This document shows positions 10,888-13,580 of a stretch of DNA of 64,000 nucleotides, in pieces (the stretch's first letter is position 1; the number at the start of each line of letters is the position of its first letter). Source of the DNA: an uncultured Acidobacteriota bacterium (lineage in GTDB: Bacteria; Acidobacteriota; Vicinamibacteria; Fen-336); contig OY970399.1 of NCBI GenBank assembly GCA_963720545.1, forward strand, positions 3,072,001 to 3,136,000. The letters are read 5' to 3'. A program made the translations under genes and the position numbers. The notes under the pieces were generated by a model, which had not been told where the DNA came from, made no database searches, and worked only from the letters and a program-made list of their open reading frames with translations.

Positions 10888-10965
10888 GTCGGGTTGGTGG
10901 CAGTGTAGCCCGAGACGCCATAACATCCCGCCTGTTCCCACATGCAGCCGAAGGAGATTGTTCAC

Positions 10966-12357
10966 ATGACGATCCGCAAGCGCACCCGCGCGCTCAGTGC
11001 CCTGCTGCTCCTGGCGATGGCGCCACTGGTCTTCCCGGCGGCGCCGAAGAAGGCCGCGGCGACGGCACCGAGCGGGCCCGAGATGCTGCCGCCGCTGCGC
11101 GAGCAGACCGAGATGCGCCAGGAATGGCTGAAGCTGCGGCTCGAGCGGGTGCTGCCGGCGCTGATGCGCAAGCACGGCGTCGCCATGTGGATTGTCGTCT
11201 GCCGCGAGTACAACGAGGATCCCGCGTGGTTCTCGCTCGCCTCGCCGTGGGTGATGCACGCGCGCCGCCGCACCATCCTGTTGTTCTACGACCGCGGCGG
11301 CGACCAGGGCATCGAGCGGCTGGCGCTCGGCGGCGGCTCGAACGGCGGCCTCTACGAGATCTACCGCGATCCCGAAGCGTCGGGCCGCGAGCTCTATGGC
11401 CAGGGCCAGTGGCAGACGCTGCGCAAGGTGGTCGACGAGCGCAAGCCGAAGAACATCGCGCTCGACATCTCGCAGACGCATGCGTTCTCCGACGGTCTAT
11501 CGGTGGGCGAGTGGGAGCAGCTCGCGGCGGCGCTCGGCCCGTGGACCGCGAAGGTGGTGCGCGCCGAGGAACTGCCGCTCGAGTACATCGAAACGCGCAT
11601 CCCGGAAATGCTGCCGACCTACAAGAAGATGATGGCGATCGTGCATGCGCTGATCGCGCGCGCGTTCTCGAACGAGGTCATCACTCCGGGCAAGACAACG
11701 AACGTGGACGTCGAGTGGTGGCTGCGCCAGCACGTCAACGACCTGGGCCTCGGCGAGTGGTTCCCGCCGTCCGTCAACATCCAGCGTCCCGCGAAGGGCG
11801 CCGGCGCGTTCGGCGCGACCGCCGAGCACCAGGCGACCGTGATCGAGCGCGGCGACCACCTGCACACCGACTTCGGGATCTACCAGATGGGCCTCGCGAC
11901 CGACACGCAGCACGTGGGCTACGTGCTGAAGGCGGGCGAGACCGACGCGCCGGCGGGCCTGAAGCAGGCCTTGCTCAATTCGAACAGGATGCAGGACATG
12001 GCGGTGGCGCGGCTCAAGCCCGGCCTCTCGGGCAACGACGTGCTGCTCGCGGTGCTCGCCGACATGAAGGCTGCCGGCATCGAGGGCAGCATGTATTCGC
12101 ATCCCATCGGCGACCACGGCCACGGCGCCGGGCCGATGATCGGCTTGTGGGACCGGCAGGAACCGATTCCCGGACGCGGCGAAGTGGCGGTGCTGCCGAA
12201 CTCCTGGTACTCGATCGAACTGCAGGCGACCACCGCGGTGCCGGAGTGGAACGGCCAGCGTGTGTCGTCGCAGCAGGAAGAGGACGTCTCGATCGATGCG
12301 GACGGCAAGGTCTCGTGGGTCCTGGAGCGGCAGACCAGATACCACCTGGTCAAATAG
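10966..12357 (+). CDS. M24 family (Xaa-Pro aminopeptidase-like) metallopeptidase, secreted
   Basis: AAGGAG RBS, signal peptide, DFG..TDTQ, YSHPIGDHGHG, SIEL, QEED metal ligands. Confidence 0.85.
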   Translation: MTIRKRTRALSALLLLAMAPLVFPAAPKKAAATAPSGPEMLPPLREQTEMRQEWLKLRLERVLPALMRKHGVAMWIVVCREYNEDPAWFSLASPWVMHARRRTILLFYDRGGDQGIERLALGGGSNGGLYEIYRDPEASGRELYGQGQWQTLRKVVDERKPKNIALDISQTHAFSDGLSVGEWEQLAAALGPWTAKVVRAEELPLEYIETRIPEMLPTYKKMMAIVHALIARAFSNEVITPGKTTNVDVEWWLRQHVNDLGLGEWFPPSVNIQRPAKGAGAFGATAEHQATVIERGDHLHTDFGIYQMGLATDTQHVGYVLKAGETDAPAGLKQALLNSNRMQDMAVARLKPGLSGNDVLLAVLADMKAAGIEGSMYSHPIGDHGHGAGPMIGLWDRQEPIPGRGEVAVLPNSWYSIELQATTAVPEWNGQRVSSQQEEDVSIDADGKVSWVLERQTRYHLVK

Positions 12358-12402
12358 CGAAAGAGTCGTGAGTTGTTAAAGGCGACACGCTGCATTTTCG
12401 CC

Positions 12403-12431
12403 TTGACGCGCGGGAGGGTGCGGCCGATATT
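12403..12431 (+). promoter_or_regulatory. sigma70 promoter of the candidate ncRNA
   Basis: TTGACG (12403-12408), 17 nt, GATATT (12426-12431). Confidence 0.55.
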
Positions 12432-12437
12432 GAACTG

Positions 12438-12645
12438 ACGGCGCCGCATCGTACGGAAGTGAGGTTTGATGGAGGGTACTCCGCCGGGCCGTAACTAGCG
12501 GCGAGCGATCGCCGCACCGCACAAACCGTCGATACAGGGAAGCGAACAAAGGACGCGCGTGCAACGCGCGCCGGCCCACCGCGTCTGAGGTTCGGGCCAA
12601 AACAAGACGTGAAAAGGCCAGGTCTTTTCGACCTGGCCTTTTTTT
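12438..12645 (+). ncRNA. Candidate ~200-nt structured small RNA
   Basis: Own promoter and terminator, no downstream same-strand gene; several stems including a GCGA-tetraloop hairpin and a possible 3' pseudoknot. Confidence 0.6.
12612..12645 (+). terminator. Rho-independent terminator, probably bidirectional
   Basis: AAAAGGCCAGGTC-TTTTC-GACCTGGCCTTTTTTT. Confidence 0.9.
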
Positions 12646-12817
12646 AGCTGTCGACGGATGGGTAGCCATCGACGGATGGGCTGTCTCGTCCCCGTCCCAT
12701 CCGTCGAATTCCGTTGTCCGTTCCCCGAGCGCTTGCGACAACGTTCGGTCGTTTCGTTCTCCGAGCGCTTGCGACAAGGTTCGTTAGGTTCGTTCCCCAG
12801 GCGCTTGCGACAACGTT
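12645..12817. repeat. REP/BIME-like composite repeat, copy 1
   Basis: Hairpin TCGACGGATGGG (12669-12680)/CCCATCCGTCGA (12696-12707), an extra left arm at 12651-12662, then three units at 36-bp period (12719, 12755, 12791) with core GCGCTTGCGACAA. Confidence 0.85.
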
Positions 12818-13508
12818 ATTCGTCGTAATCGTCGGTATCGTCTTCGACGGCCGCCTTGGGACGCTTGCGATCGAAGGTGCGGCCGCCCTCGTCGCGCTTG
12901 CGCTTCTCGAAGTCGCGGCCGGTCTTGTTGCCGCCGCCGCTCGAGCGGCGCTTCTGGCTGGCAGCGGTGCGCGCGTTGAAGTCGGGCGCGTCGGACGCCG
13001 AGGGTCCGGTGCCGAAGGGCCGCGGCGAGAACGGACGCTGGCCATAACCGGCGCCGCCACCGCCGCCACCAGGACGCTGGCCGTAACCACCGCCCCCACC
13101 GCCCGGCCGCTGTCCATATCCACCGGCACCGCCACCGCCGCCAGGGCGCTGACCGTAGCCGCCGCCGCCACCGCCGCCGGGACGCGGACCGCGGTCGCGC
13201 GCACCGCCGAAGTCGCCGCGCGGTGCGAAGCTGCCAGGGGCTCCGCCCTCGGGACGCGGCGGGCGGTTCTCGGCGAGGTTGACGCGCAGCGGACGACCGC
13301 GCAGGTCGGTGCCGTTCAGCATGTCGATGCTCTTCTCGGCCGCTTCGCGCTCCTGGAATTCGACGAACGCGAATCCGCGCGGACGCCCCGTTGCGCGATC
13401 GGTGGGAATCTTCGCGTCGAGGACTGTCCCTGCGGCACCGAAAGCCGTGAGCAGCTCCTCACGGGTTACTTCGTAGCTGAGGTTTCCGACGAAAACCTTG
13501 TTCGAAAT
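12816..13508 (-). CDS. RRM RNA-binding protein with Gly-rich low-complexity tail (probable ATT start)
   Basis: RNP2 KVFVGNL, RNP1 RGFAFVEF; (GGGG)YGQRP x4; GAGAGG 6 nt before in-frame ATT 13508. Confidence 0.88.
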   Translation of the reverse strand: MSNKVFVGNLSYEVTREELLTAFGAAGTVLDAKIPTDRATGRPRGFAFVEFQEREAAEKSIDMLNGTDLRGRPLRVNLAENRPPRPEGGAPGSFAPRGDFGGARDRGPRPGGGGGGGYGQRPGGGGGAGGYGQRPGGGGGGYGQRPGGGGGGAGYGQRPFSPRPFGTGPSASDAPDFNARTAASQKRRSSGGGNKTGRDFEKRKRDEGGRTFDRKRPKAAVEDDTDDYDE

Positions 13509-13580
13509 GGCATGCCTCTCTAGGCTGGGCGCGACTCTAACAGAAACGAATGACTGTGCAAGCTTAGACTTACAGCCACA

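Follow-up and report, generated by a model that had tools for sequence, protein, structure and literature searches.

A small RNA gene of at least three bacterial phyla, marked by a Pro-Pro micro-ORF

The transcript and its identity

The intergenic gap between the end (12357) of an M24 metallopeptidase gene (10942..12357, plus strand) and the end (12816) of a convergent gene for an RRM protein (12816..13523, minus strand) is the site of an RNA of about 208 nt (12437..12645, plus strand), and the question raised by this locus is what such an RNA might do. A first-pass annotation of the window (the whole stretch of DNA that was analysed, 64,000 nt from an uncultured Acidobacteriota bacterium) had described a stand-alone structured RNA with no same-strand gene downstream, and the gene layout around 12645 bears this out. 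Every motif named in that annotation was found at its place, and the predicted folding of the RNA outperformed 200 of 200 shuffled sequences (z -4.15; the terminator contributes to this value).

The RNA is preceded by a sigma-70-type promoter, TTGACG-N17-GATATT (12403..12431, plus strand), which is the sole promoter-like site returned by the promoter scan in 11500-13500 (shuffle mean 0.2); as had been proposed, it ends with a strong intrinsic terminator (12612..12645, plus strand) with seven T at its end, 12645. Although the terminator scan did not list it, the terminator is legible in the sequence and is also supported by covariation and by the end (12644) of a contig from the metatranscriptome run X1. 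Since an A-tract lies 5' of it, the terminator is probably shared with the convergent gene.

Fourteen RNA runs were listed, four of them sharing 0.22-0.28 of the words in a 701-nt query, and four runs from four studies were compared; transcript-sized contigs of the RNA were present in three of the four. The transcript expected at 12438-12645 was recovered in X1 as a 209-nt contig with 0 mismatches, which covers 12437-12644, that is, from the predicted start to the terminator, and no identical contig corresponds to the flanks of the RNA in this run. Near-identical contigs inside 12445-12600 were found in X6 and X13. In X5 flanking sequence was present and a contig of the RNA was not found, absence from contigs being uninformative. 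Neither the strand nor the level can be read from contigs, and carry-over of DNA is possible; the strand is taken from the promoter and terminator. As both ends of the X1 contig match the predicted ends, a discrete transcript is favoured over DNA carry-over.

In agreement with the earlier statement that the RNA does not look like a tRNA, tmRNA or rod-shaped 6S RNA, searches for tRNA, tmRNA and Rfam families were negative, and the genome has its own 6S RNA (C1:458564, 92.6 bits) and tmRNA (C1:660282), both away from the RNA. The suggested overlap with Acido-1 was not recovered: none of the Rfam 15 families, Acido-1, 6S, tmRNA, SRP and riboswitches included, matched the window at the gathering threshold, and the same collection gave 0 matches in two sets of 10 and 12 homologous loci. 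Nine weak matches, mostly terminator-driven, reached 22 bits at best against a threshold of 55. A published description of this RNA was not found in the literature searched, which included few subscription papers; supplementary catalogues of motifs or small ORFs could list it.

Homologs, range and genomic neighbourhood

A BLAST-level DNA search of 61 genomes gave six matches outside G000, of which two were true homologs, two were rejected because they lie inside coding DNA, and two were presumably rRNA. More homologs were taken from loci around peptidase and RRM genes. Since the first 26 homologs had been found partly via the ORF, model R2 was built from the 3' hairpins and the terminator only. 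At E<=0.01 this model matched 55 of 58 other genomes of the family, the single genome of a sister family (1/1) and, weakly, 4 of 18 genomes of a third family. Inspection of 69 matches with E<1e-3 left 64 copies that show the full design; 38 of these had not been used for training, and all 64 together represent 55 genomes, nine of which carry two copies. The design common to them by comparison consists of a promoter, a Shine-Dalgarno sequence with a start codon, 2-6 variable codons, Pro-Pro-X, hairpin A at a fixed distance, a stop codon ahead of hairpins B and C, and a terminator; under a relaxed pattern, a promoter site similar to that of the window stands 5' of 61 of the 64 copies. Terminator-like matches lacking the design (L183, L185, L186) were dropped, as were L180 and L181, in which the promoter match is absent; in the latter two the reading is MEGPPD with CCC-CCC, and if they are divergent members, as is possible, the CCA/CCG rule at the first proline codon (Pro1) described below would be weaker.

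An any-frame pattern returned 28 loci from named GTDB genomes (18 Nitrospirota, 2 Rokubacteria, 6 Acidobacteriota/Vicinamibacteria, 1 Pseudomonadota and 1 chance match within a gene), all 28 in frame, and among metagenome loci, many of which are near-duplicates, 79 of 80 were in frame. With a relaxed pattern, 33 of 151 genomes of the Rokubacteria phylum and 24 of 201 Nitrospirota genomes were matched; 15 of 30 fetched loci and 9 of 26 tallied loci, respectively, were in frame and short, the rest lying mostly within genes. Model R3, whose training loci were 14 from the Rokubacteria phylum and one from Acidobacteriota outside the family, found the RNA of the window as its best match in the window's whole genome (E 8e-4), and model R1 scored all 24 outside loci given to it. 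Since the ORF pattern by which the loci were selected enters both tests, common descent of the RNAs of the three phyla is likely rather than proven. An additional group of ME-x-TPPG RNAs, a further lineage among the metagenome loci, has 3' hairpins and a terminator of its own (L367, L374, L384, L393, L407, L411, L425, L428).

Elsewhere the yield was low. Among 401 genomes of Acidobacteriota at large the relaxed pattern matched 10, about as many as the reversed control; two were known copies and eight were chance matches, in frame once. R3 matched 5 of 150 genomes, where only the RNA of the window was real. Apart from one genome of another order (G126), the Acidobacteriota searched outside the named groups yielded no copy of the element. 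The Alphaproteobacteria gave one candidate (L195/L226), three further matches among 301 genomes being due to chance, and 27 other Lrp loci (30 taken, 2 unparsed) lacked the element at the candidate's site. Viral contigs gave a single match, which was out of frame. Taken together, these data define a real small RNA gene of at least three bacterial phyla that matches no Rfam 15 family.

The genomic surroundings vary. Upstream genes differ from copy to copy, the M24 peptidase gene adjoining the RNA in part of the family; the usual landmark is the RRM gene, which lies no more than about 10 kb away. Of the 60 copies classified, 49 have a convergent gene next to them, from which it follows that the RNA is not an ordinary leader, as the first-pass annotation had also held in rejecting a cis leader. 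Same-strand genes within 100 nt occur in seven copies and are mutually unrelated (sigma factor, symporter, amidohydrolase and glycosidase-like genes).

Several neighbouring features may be recorded here. The usual convergent neighbour (L002:3-1346 and its equivalents in many family loci) encodes a conserved protein that reaches about 560 residues, a 447-residue part of which (L002:3-1346) has no Pfam match. Second copies in genus g5 (L167, L174, L175) are each followed closely, on the same strand, by a related gene; that of L174, which was tested, encodes a sigma-70-family factor. A 36-nt unit repeated 2.8 times and a long hairpin (12719-12817 and 12652-12704 of the window) are found in the RRM gene's 3' untranslated region. 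On the minus strand a 12-nt word of one of these units recurs in a stretch that is conserved among the Nitrospira RNAs; the repeats and hairpin are possibly RRM binding sites, or the shared word a chance match.

Predicted transcript lengths across the copies range from 178 to 423 nt, with a median of 245 nt. Long 5' extensions with 6-14 CGT[AG] repeats per RNA are present in L111, L116, L119, L125, L133, L135, L136, L140 and L171, and might resemble a protein sponge. Rokubacteria-phylum copies L279, L284, L286-L289, L297 and L301 keep ACCGG in the terminator loop, a word resembling the Pro-Pro codon stretch.

The micro-ORF and the hairpins around it

The first-pass annotation overlooked a Shine-Dalgarno-led micro-ORF at 12469-12498. 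In the window it is preceded by the Shine-Dalgarno-like GAGGT (12461..12465, plus strand; GGAGGTG or GGAGCG in most homologs) and reads MEGTPPGRN-stop (12469..12498, plus strand, with an in-frame TTG at 12466); frame and stop are conserved in homologs. Its Pro-Pro-Gly codons (12481..12489, plus strand) form the predicted pause site, and Pro-Pro is found in 64/64 copies, the third positions of both Pro codons showing synonymous changes. When the Pro-Pro motif was located by sequence and starts were then counted blind to frame, a Shine-Dalgarno-led ATG was in frame with Pro-Pro in 58 copies and out of frame in 1 (35 and 1 among copies outside the training set). In all 64 copies the first stop in the Pro-Pro frame precedes the 3' module, as against 21/64 and 25/64 for the other frames; the copies are kin, so these counts are not independent. 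An early stop is absent from two outlying copies, L303 (at least 80 codons) and L212 (61 codons).

The start codon is ATG in 54 copies, GTG in 6, TTG in 2, and ATA and ATC in one each; in L170 and L173 the ATA or ATC lies at the normal distance from the Shine-Dalgarno sequence. ATA and ATC starts are sensitive to IF3. The distance from start to Pro takes six values, all whole codons, with 2-6 variable codons between, and is followed after Pro-Pro by another 1-16 codons, so that peptides of 7 to 26 residues with no conserved C-terminus result. Pro-Pro is the only invariant part of the peptide; an acidic N-terminus and a [TSG]PP[GD] core are conserved. The residue after Pro-Pro is G in 37 copies, A in 8, D in 7, V in 6, N in 4 and K in 2. 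PPG, PPD and PPN are strong EF-P-dependent stalls. According to an excerpt of bioRxiv 2024.04.15.589488, PPN serves as a stall reporter. The second proline codon (Pro2) is CCG, CCC or CCT. Pro1 is CCG or CCA only, though the motif used required a purine there, and CCA accounts for 27 of 64 copies compared with 77 of 1479 first codons of genomic Pro-Pro pairs; CCA tunes pausing (PMC8129111, in part). The third position before Pro1 is T in 49 of 64 copies, in GC-rich genomes.

The start codon is predicted to fold onto the Pro codons in a start-occluding hairpin (12463..12490, plus strand; TGGAG/CTCCG core, pairing probability 0.92-1.0), whose 4-bp core is paired in 96% of cells across 26 homologs, with one-sided changes only. 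As the UGGA of the start pairs with the UCCR of Pro1, selection at the RNA level explains part of the codon pattern and could explain the CCA/CCG preference at Pro1. Hairpin A (12498..12515, plus strand) has its 5' arm at +15 in the window, counted from the first base of Pro2, and at +13/+14 in most homologs; over 64 family, 18 Rokubacteria-phylum and 27 Nitrospira-phylum copies pairing of this arm rises at +13/+14, the spacer being fixed in length and freely variable in sequence, and 200 genomic control sites showed no such step. Eleven nucleotides fit into the mRNA channel, and a stem-loop at a spacer of 11-12 nt blocks A-site binding, an inhibition relieved by a 13-nt spacer (PMC7282821, excerpt). 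Most copies are at or near the 11-12 nt limit; the RNA of the window, at +15, fits only one codon later. This spacing, the most telling feature of the structure, suggests that a GC hairpin A would sit at the mRNA entrance of the ribosome when Pro2 is read.

The 3' module is formed by hairpin B (12553..12571, plus strand; two-sided changes at 5/8 pairs) and hairpin C (12573..12598, plus strand), the latter predicted and covarying, with a long loop in the RNA of the window only. Two-sided changes in hairpins B, C and the terminator exceeded all 500 shuffles and all slid controls, with structures derived from the same alignments, and the R3 alignment gave the same result. The sequence of the module differs between phyla.

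As for the pairings described earlier, the GNRA hairpin, the 12554-70 hairpin and GGCCC/GGGCC have pairing probabilities of 0.8-0.99, and their equivalents covary in homologs. GGTTTG/CAAACC has a probability of 0.0 in the ViennaRNA ensemble, where GGTTTG pairs with 12485-90 instead, and the alternative pairing GGGCCG/CGGCCC, likewise at 0.0, is not conserved. The 3' pseudoknot is possible in the RNA of the window, but the second loop is just 3-8 nt in the script used, and at least 5 loop-linker pairs can form in only 2 of 64 copies, this RNA and L130, with loops assigned approximately. The conserved, structured, stand-alone transcript of the first-pass annotation therefore stands, whereas its pseudoknot and alternative pairing do not characterise the family and the micro-ORF was missed. 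As far as sequence can tell, the defining feature is this micro-ORF with Pro-Pro, which bears a strong coding signature, and the RNA is not purely non-coding; that the RNA is transcribed, conserved and carries a selected micro-ORF is very probable.

Possible function and relation to known systems

A Pro-Pro micro-ORF at a fixed distance before a hairpin looks like a ribosome-pausing sensor that has no gene to control. A designed pause at Pro-Pro plus hairpin is fairly probable. Against it stand Thr before Pro-Pro in 35/64 copies, a residue listed as weakening stalls (PMC12856214, in part), Ala or Val after Pro-Pro in 14/64, and the +15 position of hairpin A in the window. The best explanation, with a probability of roughly 0.4, is that the RNA would act as a stand-alone leader-peptide-like sensor whose "downstream gene" is its own untranslated 3' module; control of this module is favoured because the stop codon always spares hairpins B and C. 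A ribosome would open the start-occluding hairpin, reach Pro-Pro and pause at this point, hairpin A then lying at the mRNA entry channel, which would amount to a double brake, and release would depend on active EF-P/EfpL and charged tRNA-Pro. The length of the pause may then determine whether RNA of full length is produced or persists, or whether a protein partner has access to hairpins B/C, which is the weakest step. The RNA would thus report elongation capacity in trans, with the peptide as a by-product. No partner or target of the 3' module was found, the scan for mRNA targets giving nothing above shuffles. G000 encodes two EF-P paralogs (L242 and L243); one has a PGNWRG loop without the usual lysine and the other an arginine-tipped, EfpL-like loop, the EfpL label resting on the arginine loop as in the excerpted bioRxiv 2024.04.15.589488. 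Loop type and presence of the RNA showed no link in the 10 genomes checked.

The strong promoter and Shine-Dalgarno sequence, the double-brake geometry, the stand-alone context and the second copies in nine genomes would also suit an abundant RNA on which paused 70S ribosomes are parked, or which titrates EF-P/EfpL or peptidyl-tRNA-Pro, with hairpins B/C just stabilising it; in X1 the RNA contig is assembled while flanking DNA of the same strain is not, contigs being unable to give the RNA level. Such a store is nevertheless unlikely, given that the conserved hairpin hiding the start codon would limit ribosome loading, that very short acidic nascent chains, as in MgtL, tend to destabilise ribosomes rather than hold them (PMC12856214, excerpt), and that EF-P loop type does not track the RNA. 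Base pairing offers another reading, in which the conserved UCCRCC is an anti-Shine-Dalgarno seed and translation is secondary or gates access to it. The T before Pro1 and the restriction of Pro1 to CCA/CCG do point to nucleotide-level selection; a seed alone, however, would not be expected to conserve frame, start and stop, its best duplexes with 2482 crudely called G000 start regions were no better than those of shuffled seeds, and G000 (94.8% complete) has no Hfq match, all of which makes a seed RNA quite improbable.

Attenuation in cis, where a Pro-Pro stall opens the terminator so that transcription continues into a gene behind it or enters the convergent operon in antisense, would account for the attenuator-like geometry, and in many copies the Pro-Pro-Gly codons and the arms of hairpin A can pair with the 5' arm of the terminator. 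Yet cognate pairing is no better than non-cognate (Pro-Pro/terminator p=0.55; hairpin A/terminator p=0.43-0.97), the X1 contig ends at the terminator, most next genes are convergent, and the same-strand genes of the seven copies, which would otherwise fit, are unrelated; this reading is distinctly improbable. It is harder still to credit the peptide itself as the effector, a signal or an enzyme substrate: its conserved acidic N-terminus and core and the adjacent M24 peptidase gene in part of the family would fit, but its length and C-terminus vary as described, the neighbours vary too, and the conserved RNA hairpins would be left unexplained.

It is about an even chance that these RNAs form a cross-phylum class of abundant transcripts built only to be read by one ribosome, which the Pro-Pro codons and the hairpin at its entry channel would hold, the RNA either reporting EF-P/proline status in trans or storing elongating ribosomes. 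Such an RNA would be a leader-type sensor without any operon, present in Vicinamibacteria, Nitrospira and Rokubacteria and probably in other lineages too. Pausing micro-ORFs are known as switches before genes; here one stands alone, is near-universal in a bacterial family, and recurs with the same geometry in three phyla in otherwise different RNAs. This suggests a way to sense or buffer translation, in soil and nitrifying bacteria, of which the literature searched gave no description. Cultured strains of Nitrospira exist.

Among known systems, the closest in their coding part are MgtL (mgtA) and SecM, short ORFs with prolines and acidic residues that are read for speed and not for the product (PMC12856214, in part), and the RAPP-type arrest peptides, likewise proline-bearing short ORFs read for their speed. 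In contrast to these, the RNA described here has no regulated gene, and has its own terminator, a conserved untranslated 3' module and no antiterminator covariation. With leader-peptide attenuators it shares a short ORF with conserved slow codons, but neither a same-strand regulated gene nor a conserved terminator/antiterminator alternative. SgrS, SR1, Spot 42, AzuCR and VcdRP are similar as stand-alone RNAs of 200-400 nt with a promoter, a Shine-Dalgarno-led small ORF and a terminator (PMC12310071, in part); such dual-function sRNAs combine functional peptides with mRNA pairing, whereas the present RNA keeps only Pro-Pro, and no pairing target was found in a crude duplex scan. In dnaX and the HIV frameshift element, too, a GC hairpin lies at the mRNA entry channel when a slow codon is read (PMC7282821, excerpt); the RNA differs from them in that neither a conserved slippery site nor a conserved second frame was seen, the other frames lacking conserved stops. 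Finally, rnTrpL of Sinorhizobium meliloti is released from a genuine trpE(G) leader and base-pairs with trpD, unlike the RNA of the window, which has no operon; the likeness lies in a small RNA that combines a ribosome-read ORF with a trans role (PMC6614838, in part).
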